Shown here: piece after piece, positions 9,543 to 37,671 of the stretch
Layout: every line of letters begins with the position of its first letter
Position numbering within the stretch: the stretch's first letter is position 1
Assembly: GCA_024679065.1 (NCBI GenBank)
Contig: JAGIQG010000008.1
Coordinates: 86,490,001-86,554,000, forward strand
Length of the DNA stretch: 64,000 nt
Reading direction: 5' to 3'
DNA from: Sphyrna mokarran
Lineage: Eukaryota
Notes under the pieces: model-generated
Told to the model about the DNA's origin: nothing
Seen by the model: the letters and a program-made list of their open reading frames with translations, nothing else
Database searches by the model: none
Position numbers and translations under genes: made by a program

Positions 9543-9695
9543 AAAGGAAAGGAAAGGAAGAGATCCAAGGCTGAGCTATTATTTGACCAGAGGAAGAACA
9601 AGAAGGAGCTGGAATTTGAACAAAAGCTCGCAAAAGAAAAAGAGGAGATGTTGGAGAAAGAGAAACAGTTGAAAATAAATCGATTAGTCCAAGAG
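9543..9695 (+). CDS. USH1C: Harmonin-b exon B (CC2): KGKERKRSKAELLFDQRKNKKELEFEQKLAKEKEEMLEKEKQLKINRLVQE
   Basis: ttgttag| acceptor and GAG|gtatat donor, 153 nt, phase 0/0. RKNKKELEFEQKLxKEKEEMLEKEKQLKINRLxQE is essentially identical to mammalian harmonin b. Confidence 0.96.
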
Positions 9696-11227
9696 GTATA
9701 TAGCACTGCAGATGCAATAAATTGCTTTCAAGTAGTACTTCTGTGCAATTCCACTATTTAAATAGTACCTATGTAATAGGGAGATAACGATAATTTTTCT
9801 GATCTATGTTTTGTAAAGATATTTCTTGGGGTGAGACCGTAAATATCATAAAATACAAATCAGCCTAATTACCTATCTGTTGCTTACTAAATATAATCCT
9901 TGTAATCCTGTGGATTTTCATATAATTTTGGAATTTAGTAGACTGATGACAAATGAGAGTCATCTTTGATCATATAAGTAACAAAGAGGGAGAGGAATAT
10001 ACTGCAAGTACTTGAGAGGGAAGATTGCAGATTGCACTACAGTTGTTTAGGATGCTTATTGATAACATAATAGGGAAAAATATTGTGTGATGTGCCACAA
10101 CTGTTTGGACATGTTGTTGAGTAGCGCTCAAATTAATGAGAGAGTGCCTTGTCATGTCCCTTTTGTTGGAAAAAAAATATTCTTCTCTACGAAAGTATTT
10201 GTTACACTTTTCCTACTTGATTGCTTTCAATAGTTTGAAAGTTACATAAACTTCCCCAAAATTGAAAGATTAGTTGATGTTTACAATAAGTATATTGCTG
10301 GTTTCATAAAATTACTGAATTGAAATTTATTTGCATGTGACATGGATTATCTTAAATTTAAATTATAAAAAATGTCAATTGTATCTATCAAGCCTCCTTA
10401 ATTTATTTACTAGGTCTCCATCTCGAGTCCTAGTTCTATTATACTCAAACTCATTGTACTGAAATCTTATTTGAATGTAAACATTGTCTTCTGTAATTTA
10501 TAAAATCATTGTTCTTGATTTTGATCTTCAATCGGTAGCATTTTGTGGCCACTGTTCACAGGTTTGAATATCAACAACAAGTAGTCCACATTGAAAATAT
10601 AGGTTGAAAAACAGGTGCATAATATAAATTAAATTTTAAAAGGTATGAAGAACAATTATGTATTTCAGATTGTAACCGCCACTTCTGTAAAACCATAAGT
10701 GAAAGAAAACCTAACAGGTATTTTTTGTTCTTTCCCCCCATTATCTGCTGAAAAAAAATAAGTGTCTTAAATTACATCAATAATAGAGAGGTGCCCTGGA
10801 GTGACATTTTATGAAAAAAAAAATCACTAGCAAGATCAGGAAGACATCAGTCATTATCCTCTTGTCTGTGCTATTTTTGGTACTGGTTGATGTCAGCAAG
10901 GCAAAAGTGTAGAGAAAACTATTGACCTTTGTGGCTGTATGCTAGATTGGGTCGATCAACAAAGGTCCTTGCTCCTAACCACTGTCCAGTAATCCCTGCT
11001 GGATGTGGGAACCTATAGGCACCAAAGGTTTTCAAAAATTTATTAGGTAGGTAGTTGAGGGAAATAAACGTTCAGGGCTATGGGGTTGGAGTAGGGAAAT
11101 GGGACTGACTGGATTGTTTTACAGAGAGCTGACATGGACTTGATGGGCTGAATGTTTTCCTTTTATATTGTGATGACACTGTGACACTCACTGCCAAGTC
11201 TCGTAGCAACACGCCTCCTTGGCGAAA

Positions 11228-12352: not shown

Positions 12353-14620
12353 GTAAATAGTTATTCAAGATGACTGCATGTACAGAGATCTGTGCACTGC
12401 ATGAAATATTGTTGGCACTTTATGTAATATGGCAAGTGATTTCCAATGGGGTGGGGGAATAATACAATATCCAACTAACTTATACGGCAACGTTATAGTA
12501 ATAAGTGGGTAACAAACTGTTTCAAGTATCAAATTGGCAAATAAATCTTGAACAACCAATTTTGATTTCTTTAACATAAAATGATCATACATCTCCTACT
12601 TGATTTAAAAGTATTGGGACTGTAATTGGTCTTTCGTTGTAGCACAAAACAGATGGTGATATAAAGTTAAAGTTCAATTTTATTTTTTTTTCAGATCACT
12701 TAGTTTGCTAGACTTAGTGAGAATCTAATTTTCAAAGCATTCTACCAATTTTGTCTAAGTAGCCAGAATGAAATTAGTGAATTCATTTCATTTAGTCAAT
12801 TATGAATTTAGAAGGTTTACTCAACTAATATGCTAATACCTGGGATGTTGGTGGTGGGGAGGCTGGCTATTTTACGAGGAAAGGTTGGATTGGCTGGGCC
12901 TGGATCCAGTGCAGTTTTAAACATTGAGAGCTGTTCCAAGACACCTTTCCTTTCCAAAATACTTGAATTTCTGATACCTTCCAAATAAATGCCCATTCTT
13001 CCTGCAACTTCTCCAACTTTTTTCTCAATCACCCCACTCTCCCAGTGTTGCTGGACTTTTTGTTCAATATCCAGTTTATTATGAGTCACCAATTTGCTCT
13101 GGTTGAATATTAAAAAAAAGAAAGCCATTATCTATGGTTCACAACACATAGTCTAAACCCTTGCCATCAATCCCATTTCCTTTCCCAGCCGCTGCCTCAA
13201 CATTAACAGGACATCCTGTGCATCACACAGACAGTCTACTATCATTCCCATAACATTACTCACTTATGTCCCGCTTCTGTTCCTGAAAACCTCATCCATG
13301 CTTGACTTTTTTAATTCCCTCCTCACAAACTTCTGTCACCCATGCTTCCTGAACTTAAGTTCATCTGATGTTCTGCTTCCCTTTTCCTAATCAGCTCCAA
13401 GCCCCATTTATCCAACATCTTAGTGCTTGCAGGCCTGCATCGAGTCCACCAATGGCTTGATGTAAGAATTCTTATATTAATGTTCAAATCCCTCATTCCT
13501 TCACCTCTCCATATTTCTGCCAATGATCTCCAACCTAACAACTTTCCCAAAGACGCTGTCTTCTTCCAACAAACAACAAGGAATCCTATGTTAAGTCCAG
13601 TGGAACACCATCAGAAACTATTTCCCATTCACAAAAACATCCATCCACCCTTTGTTTCCTATTGCTAAGCCAATTTTAGATCCAACTTGTAGTCTTCCCC
13701 TGTATCCCATGAAAACTGGATTGACATAATATCTGAAATGGCACACGTTTGAAACAGTGAACTATTTGTCAGTAATGTAAGTAGCAACATTTTGGAAGCT
13801 GTTGCCTCTCTTCGTGCACTTAGTGGTGCACAAGGCAGACTTTCATTTATTCACATAGTGAGGTTTATCCTGGAGCAGGTCATTAGCTTGTTGTCAAAGG
13901 CTTTTAACTTGAGGGACACCATGCCACATCAAGCATGGCTGACCAGGAATCACTCCTTCCCTCACCATTTACCATTGGCATGTTGGAATGATTTTGCAGG
14001 TTGATATTCAACCCATTGGATCTATTATGAATACACTTTCCTTGGCCACCAAGTCCTGGGATAAGACTCAAACCTGGAGCTTCTGTCTCAGGGAAAGGGC
14101 TGTGACCCAATGCCACAAAATGCCCTTTGCCTCCATTTAATACTATAAAATTAAGTGTTTTATGAATTAATGTTGACACTTTCGATTTAATACAGCCATT
14201 TCCAGTAAAAAATAATACATCAGCACATTTTGATTTGACTTCATCATTACCACTTATATTCCTTAGTTTTATACACCATATGGAATAGATGACAGCTCAT
14301 TCAGATTTTTTTGCTCAGGGTCTAACGTGTCCATATTAGTCCAAGTTTAGAAGATGAGTAAACTCATCCATACTTGGCTCCACTGGGACCGTTTTGAGTT
14401 CTATGTTTGTTTTGATGCCTACTTGCACAATATCAATAACTCAACTTTTACTGGGGATTCTCTTTTTACATTTCATTGATAGCAGTGATGTCTTGGAAAA
14501 GCATTTTCAGATGACTGTTTCTTCAGTGTTGGTTATTGATGTTGCTTGGAGTGAAAATTTTATTTTATCCTTTTAAATTGAGAATCATGCAGTTTTAAAA
14601 CCCCTATTATTCGCTCACAG

Positions 14621-15157
14621 GGGTCAAGTGCACCACCACCCCCTTCAACATCAGTACGGAAATTTGCCGGTGGCCTCCAACTGCATACCACAGATCTTGA
14701 TGACATCAACTTAGATCAATTTGATCAGCCAGCTAAGCGAATGGCACCTCCTCCACCAGCATCCCATCTTGTTCCAGCAGCACAGCCACCCAGGATGCCA
14801 TCACCAACTACCACACCATCACGGAAAAAGCCTGCCCCACCTCCACCAACTCCACGACATCCAAAACCATCTCACGTAGGCTCCAGAGCATCACCTGTAT
14901 CCCCAATTCCACTTCCTCCATGCCCTCCAGCTCCACCGCCACCCCCACCACTCCCCATTACAATGCCCGTTCATTCTATTGCCTTTACTCATTCTCAGGG
15001 TACTATTCCAGAAGCAAGGGAAAACAACTTGTCCTATTATTCCCAAGCTGGCATGGAGCCAGTTAAAGATTGGGAAGAATACAACTATAATTCAAAAGCT
15101 GGGTACAGTCCTGTATACAATCTGGCTGGTGAACGTTCATATCCAAATAATCATCAG
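14621..15157 (+). CDS. USH1C: Harmonin-b exon D (PST region, 179 aa): GSSAPPPPSTSVRKFAGGLQLHTTDLDDI...PVKDWEE...YPNNHQ
   Basis: cgctcacag| acceptor and CAG|gtattg donor, 537 nt open, in frame with ORF 14741-15265. RKFAGGLQLHTTDLDDI and PVKDWE match human RRFAGGLHLHTTDLDDI and PVEDWE. Confidence 0.93.
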
Positions 15158-18092
15158 GTATTGACTGCATGTTATGATATCTGTTACGCTTGCTGTGTCA
15201 CTTTCCTCTGGACTGCATGTCTTCTCAACTTCCAGCCTAAATCTACACAAAATTGTTTATACTAGTGTAGGCAATCCTTCAAAAAAAATACATGGCTACA
15301 TAAATGACTGCTTGGCAAACCAAGCACATTTATTATCAACTGATAAGCATAAGATATGAACTTAATTAATAAAACTCTCATCACTGCATCAGAAAACCCA
15401 ATGATATATTTATGCATGTAACCAGAATAGCACTCCAATCCAATGCTGGGAAATTGCAGCATTGCTGGAGGTGCCATTCTTTGGATGGAATGTCAACTGC
15501 CCAACAGTGCATCTCAAAAAAAATTCATTGTGTGAATAGATGGAGCTGTGAAATGCAGCAAACAGTTCAATGGTCCATTGACATCAGCGCACGGGATTAT
15601 AAAATCCCACCTCACATATTAATTAATTGGAAACAGTTATTTGATATATTTACCTTTTGATTATTTTTTTATTTCTGACAAAGGACAGCATTCTCCATAC
15701 TTTAAAAGTTGCATGTGATTGGATTGACTTATTACTATAAATATGGCTGTTTATGTAAATATGAAATGATGATTGGAAATGTGTTGTATTGTCTCAGGTT
15801 GTGAGGAACACATCTCATGCTAGTAGAGTCTCTTCTACATCCAATAATCCATTGGTACGTGACAAAAATATTATGTGTGATTACATGAGCAATTATAGGT
15901 CATTCTTGGCATCAATGATAGGCTGAAGGCAATATAGTATACATTATTAAAAGCAAACATGGAACTTACTTAAAAGGTAGACTTTCTGGGGTGAAAGAGA
16001 AAAAAAATATTGTTGGAGATGTCAGACGAGTGATTAACTGATTCCTGTATGTGCTTTACATTCAGTGAGTGGACTTGTATTTGAGTTGATACTCAGATAT
16101 ATTCAAGACCTTCATTGCCAACATAAATGAATTGGCTGATATCTGGAACATTATTACTGTTAGATCAATTCTTAAACTAAGAATTAGAATGACAACAATT
16201 CATGACAGTAGCAAAATTGAAGTATATGTGTCACATTAATGAGGGGTAGTTTCATTTCATATCCATGTGCATGCAATCTGAATCAATGATCAAAACTAAG
16301 CTGATACTGGAACAAAACGAAGTGACTCTGGAAAAGGTCAATTCACTTCATCTTTGCAACCCATTGATGCTTTTGCAAGACCTTTAGTCTCCAGGTTCAG
16401 TGAGTGTAGCTGTTTGCTCTTGCATCAATGGATATAGATGTACCATAAATACTAAATACAATTAATGTTTAAAGTCTGGTTACCTGTTATTGGATCAGTT
16501 TTCCAATTATAGAAATTTTCCGTTAATGCTAGCTGAAATGAAACTAAAATAAAATTTTAAAAATTTGTAATGTGCAATATATACTATTGAAAATAATCCA
16601 TTAAAAAATTTATTCATTCACAATAGAGATATATTTGAAAAGATTTACAGCTATTATAATTGAGAGAGTGTCACATTGACATTTCCTCTTCATTGAATCA
16701 CATCCTAATATTTATTTTAAGGTACAATGTAGACTAATTTTATGTATTTCTAATCATGACTTTGACAGAGCAATTGCTTAATTATAGTAATGTTTAGGAT
16801 TTTGAGGTATAAGAACCTTCTAATTAAAGGAGAACCTCTTTAAGGTTTGATTTTTTAATTTCTAACACTAGGATCTTCAGTTGTGTTTAAACCAAGAAGC
16901 TATAAATAACTAATATTTATGAATCAAGTAGAATTTATTGAAAAGATTTTACACAAACTTAACATGAAGCAGTGAATACAACATAGAAGTTTTTCATCTC
17001 TCAAGATCCCGGGAACACTTGGTGTTGTCAACAAAAAAATGCTCTCTTTCTTTGTCTTTGTCGTTGAAGAGATGTTAAATGTTGTCCAGAAGAGCCATGG
17101 TGTCACTGCGCCATGAGAATGATAACTTCTCAGCTTTTATCCCCAAAATTCCTATTCCTCCTTCCTCTTTTAGAGATGGTCCAAATGCACTCCTCCTAGT
17201 GGCTTTAGGATGCAATTTATCTCATATCACCCTGCCTTTGTAACAACCCTTGATTTATGGGTTGTAAGCTCTAGAAGTTTATATTCCATCACAAACAAAT
17301 GTACACTTCCTCCCAGAGGAACATAAATACTCATATGCTCTTGTCAGTATATCTTAAACCAAGCTGCACACTAAAGCTATTAAAATCAATGGTTAAGCCA
17401 ACTTCTTATAATATTGTTAGAAAAAAAAATTCCTGTCTGGTACAGTCAATTAAAGCAATGCATGGTATTGTATTTTAAAGGATAAGCTTGCAGACTACGA
17501 AGTTACAAACAAACGAAAGCTTTACTGGAAGTGTGTTTACTCTATAGACTATTAGGTCAGATTGCCTGTTTGCTTGCACAAAAGAGCTGATGATGCCATT
17601 AGGATGTCACATGATCTTGTTCCAACTAGGAACAATATGGATACACAACACTTTCTTCCAGTTTACATCAGAAGTTCTTGCAATTAAAAACAATAAACTG
17701 TTAACAATCAAAATGCTGAATATGAACAATTAATAATCACAACAGTCAATAGGTTAGATGTTTCGGAGGACGCCAATTTCTGGGTGGTTGTCAGTGAATC
17801 TCAGGCATTAGATTGTACATGTTTTCTTTAACCTCTGATGTTTTTGGTTTAGTTTGGACTTTGGTAGCCTTTATCAGAGTCGATATAGTGTTTGGAGATT
17901 GACTCAGTATTGAAGTGTTTTCAACTAGGATACTGTCTTCCCCAATTGCTTTGGACTTTGTCAGGTTCTTAGGTATGTCCAGGTTTTCACTTGGCACAGC
18001 TTGTTTGGACTTTCACTTGATTCTGTCTCTGGCAAATTGGTTCTGGTTGTCAAAAGTTGGTCTGCTTGTCTTCTCCACGTTACATCATTTCA

Positions 18093-34060: not shown

Positions 34061-34576
34061 TATAGCCTGCATCTCTTAAAGCACAGAGCACTGTAGCTGC
34101 TTGTAGTGATAAATATTGTCACAGAGTTTTACAGCACAGAAAGAGCCCCTTTGCCCCATTGTGTCTGTGCTGGCCATTAAGCATTTATTTATTCTAATCT
34201 CATTTTCCAACACTTCGTCTGTAGCCTTGTGTTCTATAGCATTTCAAGTGCTCATCTAAATACTTCTTAAATGATGAGGGCACCTTTCAGGCAGTGAATT
34301 CCAGCTTGTTTCCACTCTCTGGATGAAAAGGTTTCTTTCTTCAATTCTCCTCTAAATCTCCTGCCCTAACCTTAAATTTATGTCTCCTGGCTTTTGAACG
34401 CTCCATTGAGGGGAAACATTCCTTCCTATCTACCCCACCTATGTCCCTCATAATTTGGTACACCTCAATCAAATTTCCCCCCCCCCCCCCCCCCCCCGGC
34501 TTTCTCTGCTCTAAGGAAAACACAGTAAGAATTTAGCAACACCAATTTTAAATCCAACCAATTTATTTGATAGTAA

Positions 34577-34617
34577 ATTTGCGAGCTTTCGACACTCTGT
34601 GTCTTTGTCAGGCAAAT
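34577..34617 (-). ncRNA. Minimal type I hammerhead ribozyme copy with mutated core (CUGACAA, G8A)
   Basis: Reverse complement: AUUUGC CUGACAA A GACAC aga GUGUC GAAA GC UC GCAAAU. Stems are intact but G8 is lost. Confidence 0.65.
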
Positions 34618-34902
34618 GCAGTGTTCTGGTCTGCAATAGCACACATCAGCACAGTGAGGTTTTTTGCTAACCCAGGCAAGTTACGGGGGTTACAGATAAC
34701 TTGCCTGGGTTAGCAAAAAACCTCACTTACTGTGCTGTCTGGAGAAAATACACAATTCTCTAACCAATGCTCAGGATTCCTTTCACACACATTGTTAGCC
34801 ACTTTAACACTTGAATAGCAGGTTAGATGTAAGGATTCGCATTCTAATCAGCAATCTGTGACTGTCTGTGCTGATGTGTGCTATTGCAGACCAGAACACT
34901 GC

Positions 34903-34943
34903 ATTTGCCTGAAGAAGACACAGAGTGTCGAAAGCTCGCAAAT
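34903..34943 (+). ncRNA. Minimal type I hammerhead ribozyme (PLE-type), intact core, predicted cleavage after C34937
   Basis: Stem I AUUUGC/GCAAAU, core CUGAAGA plus one extra A, stem II GACAC-aga-GUGUC, GAAA, palindromic AGCU stem III remnant, UC cleavage site. Confidence 0.8.
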
Positions 34944-37671
34944 TTACTATCAAATAAATTGGTTGGATTTAAAATTGGTGTTGCTAAATTCTTACTGAGT
35001 TCTTACTACCCCAGTCCAACGCCGGCATCTCTACATCATGACTACTAAGGAAAACAACCAGCATATCTAGCCTCTGTGTGATGTGGCAGATTCAACAATG
35101 GCTGACTATGATAGCAAGGATGCACCATAATTTTCAAACCTCAATGTCTTGATTAGAATAGGTGAAAAGAAGGAGAGATGACCCTGTATGCTGGGAGTTA
35201 GGGAGCCAGAATCTTGCATGCTCATAAGATAGTGGGCAGATGTAGTAGTAGAAGTCAATACCAAATGCCTTAATGACCTGGATGCAATGGAAGATGAAGT
35301 TTAATGATCTCAGATGAATTGTCAATGTCGGGAATCCATTGTCAAATGTCATTTCTTGCCAACTACACGACTAGCCTCATCCACTGCTCAATTCATTATA
35401 CTTCCATCAAGCAACAATACTTTCTATTAATTAGAACATATACCTAGCACTTATGTGCTTTACCTCACACACACACTTGGCACAGTTGGAAATCTCAGTC
35501 TCATGTCTCAAAGCTTTATTCGTACTGGCAACTACTCAATCACAACAAAACACACAACTCAAACATATTATTGCATGAGACTCAATGTCAGAATTGTCTC
35601 CTCCTTGCAAGAGTTGTTGCACAACTGGAGACAACAGAAATTAAAGCGAGGCAGAAAAGCATCCTTCTATGTTTTAACCCTCATTGAGGATATAGTGCAG
35701 GCCATCATGAGAAGTGGATTTGCTGAGCACCCTTTTCTCATCTTCCTCCCCCTGTTCCACCTGCTGCCTCCCCTCTGCTGACAAAAGGAAGGCCTTCTTG
35801 GCCACCTAGTCTGTGTCCAAGCCTCTTGATCACCAATAAAAATGTTTCAGCAGCAACCAGACCATAAACTGTAGACTATTTAAACAAGTAAGGAAAAGCA
35901 CTCAAAATATTTCAATTGCAGCATAAGCCAGAAAAACTAAAAATACTTCCATTTATATAATGATTTCATGACAACTGGATGTCTCAAATGATTTTGCAGC
36001 CAGTGAAGTATAATTACAACTATAAAGTAGGAAATGCAGCAATAAATATGCTCTTGGTTAAGCTCCCACAAACAGCAATCCAACAACTAAACTTCAAAGG
36101 CAACACTGTTACATGCTGGTGACATCATGATTTGACTTCTCTGCGTGTTATTGGCATTTATTAGTTGTGTATCCACAATCCCGTTTCAAAAGTGGCATTC
36201 AAAACATTGCCTGTCTGAAGTTTCATGTCTCCTTGGACTATAGCTGAGAAAACAGATGCTACAGAGCCCAATTTCTTCCTGGTAATTTTTGTTTAATAGA
36301 CCTGGAGATGGAAATCTAATGTGACAACAATAATACAGGTGGAACTAGAGTATGATGTGTTTACATCAGCAGTTTTCACTCTGAATAAAGATGTAGAAAT
36401 TTATAATGAAAAGAATGTTGACAGGTTGGAAAAAACACTGTGTAGACTACGGTAGCAATATAACAAATGATTAAAACTATTTTTTCTTTATACATTAACA
36501 GTACCTGCAAATGTAGGTTCTATTGCAGTTGAGTGCAGTCGGATTTGTATTTCCCACTCTCCATATCAATTCATCTAAAATCATTAGTTGATAGATGCAA
36601 AGTTAAACACCAAATTTCGTTGTAATTCATCAGCTTTTTTTTGAACAATCTGAGATCACTATAGAACCATGTTGCTAGAAAGCAAGCAATTTGGAATTGT
36701 TGATGGTATTTCTAAAAGGTCACCTACCTTGATAACATATTGGAACACAGTTGGACAATGGCTCATAGCCTAGGAATCTGTTGTGTTAAATATGCACATG
36801 GCGCCAGCTGCGTGGACTGTTCAAAATATACGTGGTAGCATGAATTCTTTTGAGTTTGTCATTCACAACCAGCATTGTGTTTCTGAGCAATTAAGTTTTA
36901 AACAGATAGAAACACTTAACATGAATATGTATTGTAATTAAACAAATAAAAATAATGACATTCAATTGTAGGTCCTATGTTCTTATAGTCCCATCATTAT
37001 GCATTTATCCCACTAACGTGAATAAACTAAGTTCTACCTGGAACTATGTAAATATCATTCCATCAAAATAAATCAGTAAATATTCAAGCACAGCACTGAT
37101 ATAATCCAAATACAGTTTATTCTGAGATAATCCCAAACCTAAATGACTGCAGGATAAGCACATTTCATATCCTGTGCTTATCCCAGCATTTTCGTGTTGC
37201 TTTAATGATGTGAACGATATTGCAATCTAATCTCACTCAAATCAGCCAGGTAATTAATATTTCTTTTTTTAAAGTTCTGTTAGTACTGAATGGATTAATT
37301 GCTAGTTTCTTTGGAAGTATGAGCTCAACAGATGAGTGAATGGCTTTCCTTAGCTGCACTTTCCTCAAATACATTTATTCAAATACATTTTTACAAATCA
37401 TAAATACAAAGAAACATCAATATCCATGAAGAGAGTTTAAGTTTATATCAGTAATTAGAAAGTTGTCCTAATTTTGAAACTACTAGATCTGATCAAAATA
37501 ATTACTTTCATGTTAAAAGTAACCATTGGTCCAAAATATGTTTCAGAATGCTATTGCTTACTTTTTTACATAATTGAAAGATCTTCAGGAACATATGGAA
37601 TGACTTTTCCCTGTACTAATTGTAGTGATAATGTTGCTTTATTTCTCTTCAGTTGTTAAGAGAAATAACAG

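Follow-up and report, generated by a model that had tools for sequence, protein, structure and literature searches.

Background

The nearest described relatives of the elements treated here are the EN+ Penelope-like elements (PLEs) of the Neptune clade. In the available portions of PMC8557442 and PMC3846280, these elements have a reverse transcriptase (RT) followed by a CX2-5CxxC linker and GIY-YIG, and they show 5' truncation, partial tandems, an inverted 5' copy, a one-sided tail of 30-40 bp and a short duplication, all of which recur in the Sphyrna mokarran family described below. As to the target, the same portions report microsatellites or no bias, without a palindromic CTG-N16/17-CAG, whereas the Sphyrna family has a tail offset of 39.5 nt on average and duplications mostly of 12-13 bp. 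How PLEs produce inverted copies and a one-sided tail is left open in the accessible parts of PMC3846280, PMC8557442 and PMC11167929.

PAc, the Poseidon element of Anolis carolinensis, offers a biochemical comparison. According to the available text of PMC11167929, it resembles the Sphyrna family in having a tail bounded by two internal RT start sites, cutting and extension of both strands, a predicted dimer and a hammerhead in the pLTR. The same text describes for PAc a preference for ATT, priming without homology inside the ORF (+111-118) and no strand difference; the Sphyrna ends, in contrast, flank the ATG, show microhomology and occur as one of each kind per insertion.

Minimal hammerheads of metazoan PLEs, as presented in the consulted portion of PMC4209133, share with ours a type I core, an extra base after A9, G10.1-C11.1, a palindromic AGCU stem III and high variability, and pairs of them on opposite strands, 100-700 bp apart, are already noted there. 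The Sphyrna hammerhead, known from its sequence, differs in that stem I keeps about two firm pairs in younger subfamilies. Finally, the non-LTR retrozymes of bioRxiv 10.64898/2026.07.22.740005 have in common with our insertion an origin from a PLE pLTR, a type I hammerhead and the lack of a protein; in the part of that preprint available, they are tandem monomers in families, whereas the insertion is single-copy and head-to-head.

Structure of the insertion

The window is a stretch of 64,000 nucleotides of Sphyrna mokarran DNA, and its features of interest are collected in Table 1. An initial annotation had proposed a 522-bp insertion with a perfect 12-bp duplication and near-identical 132-bp inverted arms. 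Both proposals hold: the duplication is exact, and comparing the arms (34523-34654 with 34866-34997) gives 2 mismatches in 132 positions, each of them within the region of the hammerhead core. The inverted part proves to be a single copy that is truncated and contains, between near-direct repeats, a skip of about 138 nt. Its inner piece, overlooked in that annotation, forms a 31-bp inner hairpin. Splicing was considered as the source of the skip and rejected, as GT-AG bounds are found on neither strand. The inner junction is near-palindromic with a 15-nt loop, and the whole 522-nt insertion is predicted to fold into one long hairpin (-316 kcal/mol).

Table 1. Features of the insertion and its surroundings, in window positions
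Feature	Position	Strand	Remark
Frame with likely USH1C coiled-coil exon	9543..9758	+	upstream of the insertion
Old CR1-like fragment	34250..34522, resuming at 35045 for about 31 nt past the insertion	-	72-83% to other copies
Left half (CTG) of palindromic target CTG-N16-CAG	34506..34508	+	
Target-site duplication, left copy, 12 bp	34511..34522	+	exact repeat of 35045-35056
Inverted tailless copy of pLTR 3' part (left arm)	34523..34654	-	end about 40 nt before start codon
Minimal hammerhead copy, left arm	34577..34617	-	G8 to A at 34606; predicted inactive
Inverted piece: last ORF codons, stop, first 31 nt of 3' UTR	34653..34698	-	joined to left arm via skip of about 138 nt
Direct copy of 3' UTR/pLTR of Neptune-type PLE	34697..35047	+	95-98% identity to 39 other top places
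Minimal type I hammerhead, right arm	34903..34943	+	CUGAAGA, extra A, stem II GACAC/GUGUC, GAAA-GC-UC; predicted cut after C34937
One-sided tail	34998..35047	+	last part = first 10 nt of ORF (ATG at 35038)
Target-site duplication, right copy, 12 bp	35045..35056	+	first 3 nt (CTA) also match the element (microhomology)
Right half (CAG) of palindromic target CTG-N16-CAG	35059..35061	+	

Contigs of one DNA run mostly end at 35039-35040. Among the 15 listed of 266 joints (contigs from four runs) no empty-site joint across the insertion was found and no listed piece spans the locus; the sole run with both flanks is possibly the source sample.

Parent element

The insertion has 2,107 candidate relatives in the genome, of which 40 were scored, and all 39 other top places match the direct part alone (34697 to about 35045). 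Sister copies, fetched at 29 loci, continue upstream by anything from 0 to more than 1,500 nt, into a frame whose end reads GLNRDLGFMTHYL. The parent ORF matches the RVT_1 profile above its cut-off (E 3e-10) and GIY-YIG at E 2.6e-4, with 21.7 bits against a Pfam cut-off of 22.6; a search of solved structures with this ORF gave no match. One locus (L127) retains an uninterrupted 893-codon frame with RT and, at its C-terminus, GIY-YIG, the type of parent that the initial annotation had suggested looking for. This frame contains a DKG motif (ADKGG), a CX4CxxC linker (PCHSNLCKTC) and two Cys within the GIY-YIG core; the Neptune criteria in the available text of PMC8557442 are a CX2-5CxxC linker, CCHH in the EN and the DKG motif. 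We ascribe to the parent the Neptune/Nematis architecture of that text, and we assume Neptune rather than Nematis from the host group. In a partial tandem (L046/L082) the pLTR runs into the ATG, so that the pLTR holds the ORF start, which explains why the direct copy in the window ends 10 nt into the ORF.

The insertion is thus almost certainly a truncated PLE insertion. Of the two origins first envisaged for it, a heavily truncated PLE with an inverted copy is the one supported by the RT and GIY-YIG parent, the variable upstream extents and the unique junctions. As for recent activity, it is borne out for the family, whose youngest subfamily is 100% identical over 196 nt at 40/40 scored places, but not for the 522-bp copy, whose arms lie near the median identity of the sample (97.8%) and do not place it among the youngest. 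The locus itself is ordinary transposon debris.

Ends and duplications across the family

We tested 53 outward-facing end pairs from a first set of 78 loci; loci were top BLAST hits rather than a random sample, and several lie at homologous points within the same repeats. In 48/53 pairs (47 loci) there is a duplication of 11-18 bp, measuring 12-13 bp in 33 of these 48. The five pairs without one comprise four cross-pairings of separate insertions and one fold-back (L006). In all 48 fold-backs, one end falls at -2 to +14 and the other at -44 to -30 relative to the ATG, with a mean offset of 39.5.

Five predictions were then fixed before a held-out set of 59 new loci was surveyed. It yielded 34 pairs with and 4 without duplication, one of the latter (L245) having two tailless ends; two rows, one cross-pairing and one nested duplicate, were left out, giving n = 32. 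Ends fall in the stated windows in 29/32, the remaining three short ends lying at -28, -61 and -63. Across all 80 insertions, one end lies close to the start codon and the other further upstream, by about 40 nt (two near 60). Fold-back sizes form a continuum from 269 to 7,926 bp. Loci without a paired fold-back end comprise 20 tail and 8 tailless ends, and tailless ends cluster in a 15-nt window. At one locus (L175/L223; G000:C557, about 76.307 Mb), a single insertion contains a segment of about 79 nt from the start of the 3' UTR in four short tandem copies.

A palindromic target

When the empty sites were rebuilt, CTG-N16-CAG was found perfect in 13/48 and matched at 5/6 or more positions in 31/48, compared with 0.17% and 2.6% for control positions; none of the remaining spacings between 10 and 22 rose above 13/48. 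With N16 or N17 allowed, N17 having been added after the first set was seen, the figures are 18/48 and 41/48, against 0.3% and 5% of controls. The held-out set confirms the broader motif, with 15/32 sites perfect and 28/32 at 5/6 or more. Among the other 31 loci, 12/15 sites fit it (N16 or N17), these sites having been chosen for a found duplication. The site in the window is a perfect CTG-N16-CAG. Several groups of insertions (L026, L108, L121, L217 and L238; L120 and L201; L213 and L221; L088 and L097), independent of one another, occupy homologous places in other repeats that match the target motif.

Layout, tail and hammerhead have already been published for PLEs. As to the target motif, we found no paper that states a palindromic CTG-N16/17-CAG target for a PLE in the literature searched, although older work on Drosophila Penelope, or Repbase, may state preferences.

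The hammerhead motif

The initial annotation placed a hammerhead fold in each arm. In the right arm the core is intact on the + strand, with the stems, GAAA-GC-UC and predicted cleavage site as described there, plus an extra A between A9 and stem II; the left arm has lost G8, reading CUGACAA on the - strand. A motif scan of the window accordingly returns a single CUGANGA hammerhead, at 34909 (+). None of the 9 Rfam matches at E<=10 was a hammerhead; they were hairpin-driven miRNA-type and chance matches.

Across the family, between 88 and 94 of the 94 arms retain any given core base, and the core is fully intact in 79/94. Of the 11 polymorphic columns, 8 lie within the 41 hammerhead columns of 129, in line with the variable minimal hammerheads of PMC4209133. 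The first pair of stem II is G-C in 51 and G-U in 43 of the 94 arms, a two-sided change being seen in one locus (L015), and pairs 3-5 of stem I hold in 64, 41 and 23 arms. Stem covariation among copies appears weak. While the core stays fixed, the 3' strand of stem I (34938-34943) differs between subfamilies, so that about two firm pairs are left in the youngest. The minimum of a two-copy fold of the motif lacks the AGCU stem III. Tail arms seemed at first to favour A at hammerhead position 7 (7 vs 0), but in loci retrieved by a query lacking the hammerhead the difference was gone (G/A 4, A/G 2), and we discarded it as ascertainment. By eye, we noted what may be a short pLTR intron immediately ahead of the hammerhead (34820-34890, +), with donor-like sites at about 34822 and 34830 and an acceptor-like site at about 34889.

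Priming and integration

Where the motif fixes the cut (30 insertions), we compared the first five duplication bases with the element's continuation, using 500 shuffles. Matches number 91/150 at the tail end against 40, and 82/150 at the tailless end against 44, values that 0/500 shuffles reach; held-out loci give 75/135 against 41 and 85/130 against 36. Tailless-end microhomology could come from end joining. The two arms of the same insertion agree at 91-100% for ten of eleven polymorphic columns and at 68% for N7, compared with 29-78% between insertions. Nonetheless, at least 7/80 insertions carry arms of two different multi-site haplotypes (L034, L092 and L100, and in the held-out set L214, L223, L229 and L235). 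Inner junctions mostly share 0-4 bases. The longer arm may be either one, and inner breakpoints are mostly unrelated.

These genomic scars, from which all of the mechanism is reconstructed, make us fairly confident that the window holds a single head-to-head insertion, truncated at the 5' end, of a Neptune-type PLE that is abundant in the genome, likely made by a dimeric enzyme that nicks both strands and by RT from both cut ends. Target, end positions and microhomology together suggest that the cut is staggered and symmetric and that both of its ends prime. A dimeric enzyme would nick both strands of CTG-NN-(N12)-NN-CAG, each endonuclease subunit cutting its own strand 2 nt 5' of CAG and leaving 12-13-nt 3' overhangs. 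Each overhang would then pair with the pLTR RNA by 3-5 imperfect bases, one close to the start codon, the other about 40 nt upstream; the tail would be one-sided because the priming sites lie about 40 nt apart. The two cDNAs would stop independently and be joined head to head through 0-4 matching bases, and in the 522-bp copy both may have stopped near the stop codon of the ORF. We give roughly even credence to the fullest form of this model: CTG-N16/17-CAG would be recognised by a dimer of GIY-YIG and cut with a stagger of 12-13 nt, and each of the overhangs would start a cDNA of its own from one of two set positions 40 nt apart, sometimes with two different RNA molecules as templates. If true, such two-fold symmetric integration would explain inverted copies, one-sided tail and duplication across PLEs at one stroke, and a two-RNA complex would supply the partner for a hammerhead active only as a dimer. 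Counting against the mechanism, the available part of Frangieh et al. reports that the Anolis Poseidon element primes without homology and prefers ATT; the pair with two tailless ends (L245) and the three held-out short ends outside the window also weigh against it.

The same element and target could also give rise to the inverted arm by self-priming. In this scheme, put forward for Adineta Penelope in the accessible text of PMC3846280, one cDNA (or an antisense template) turns back to serve as its own template, and end joining closes the far end. Besides this published precedent, it draws support from observations that weigh against double-ended priming: most arms share a haplotype, and in 8/49 inner junctions the starts lie within 40 nt of each other, a near-palindromic arrangement that includes the 522-bp copy. 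Self-copying cannot, on the other hand, give arms of two haplotypes, so that the discordant insertions favour priming from two ends; nor does it sit well with the symmetry of the target or with tailless ends that keep to their 15-nt window even where an inverted partner is lacking. We consider self-priming rather unlikely and lean towards double-ended priming. The defined target, the stagger and the two mapped priming windows provide a direct substrate for the existing in vitro assay of the Anolis element, and they separate the two models.

Two further readings concern the fold-back as a unit and its effect on the host. A distinct non-autonomous, retrozyme-like family of 522-bp fold-backs, envisaged in the initial annotation, is extremely unlikely: both internal junctions occur once each in the genome (exact-pattern search), so that the 522-bp structure does not recur in that form, fold-back sizes are continuous, and we found no tandem monomers in the window. 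That annotation had itself named variable truncations of a PLE as the observation that would count against such a family, and this is what the other copies are. One other fold-back junction does suggest that copying of a fold-back as a unit may happen occasionally. This inner junction is shared to the base by two fold-backs (L036 and L107; G000:C838, about 42.26 and 42.78 Mb) lying 526 kb from each other, and it occurs exactly twice in the genome, yet their duplications, ends and flanks differ; the two are only 98.4% identical and may reflect local re-copying or gene conversion. It is likewise very improbable that the + strand hammerhead would cleave USH1C pre-mRNA and so affect the host gene. 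Its core is intact on the sense strand of USH1C, but stem III needs a second hammerhead, and in the predicted fold of a transcript across the locus the arms pair, the upstream one over the whole motif, and bury it, which makes cleavage unlikely. Moreover, in the available parts of the respective papers, cleavage was not seen with single minimal motifs (PMC4209133), and that of Anolis required its protein (PMC11167929). We regard the hammerhead as cargo, predicted to be locked in a hairpin in USH1C pre-mRNA.

Host context

The repeat on the left flank has 1,843 candidate matches in the genome, and other copies encode a CR1-type RT. That the insertion splits a CR1 fragment, as originally proposed, is corroborated by one CR1 copy that carries the 12-mer unbroken and by the continuation on the right flank, whose first 31 nt are matched in 4/9 compared copies. 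A run of about 22 C (34477-34498) lies in the CR1 fragment directly left of the insertion and is absent in the CR1 copies compared.

The proposed location in a USH1C intron is also upheld: USH1C_N exons are found about 74 kb ahead of the window and those for PDZ3 beyond it, all on the + strand, and one exon matches harmonin structures (E 1e-12). An atlas look-up of the likely coiled-coil exon (9543..9758) gave no match; we take its frame to resemble the harmonin coiled coil. A proline-rich frame (14582-15265, +), for which a Pfam scan gave no match, presumably resembles the PST exon of harmonin isoform b and likely holds it.
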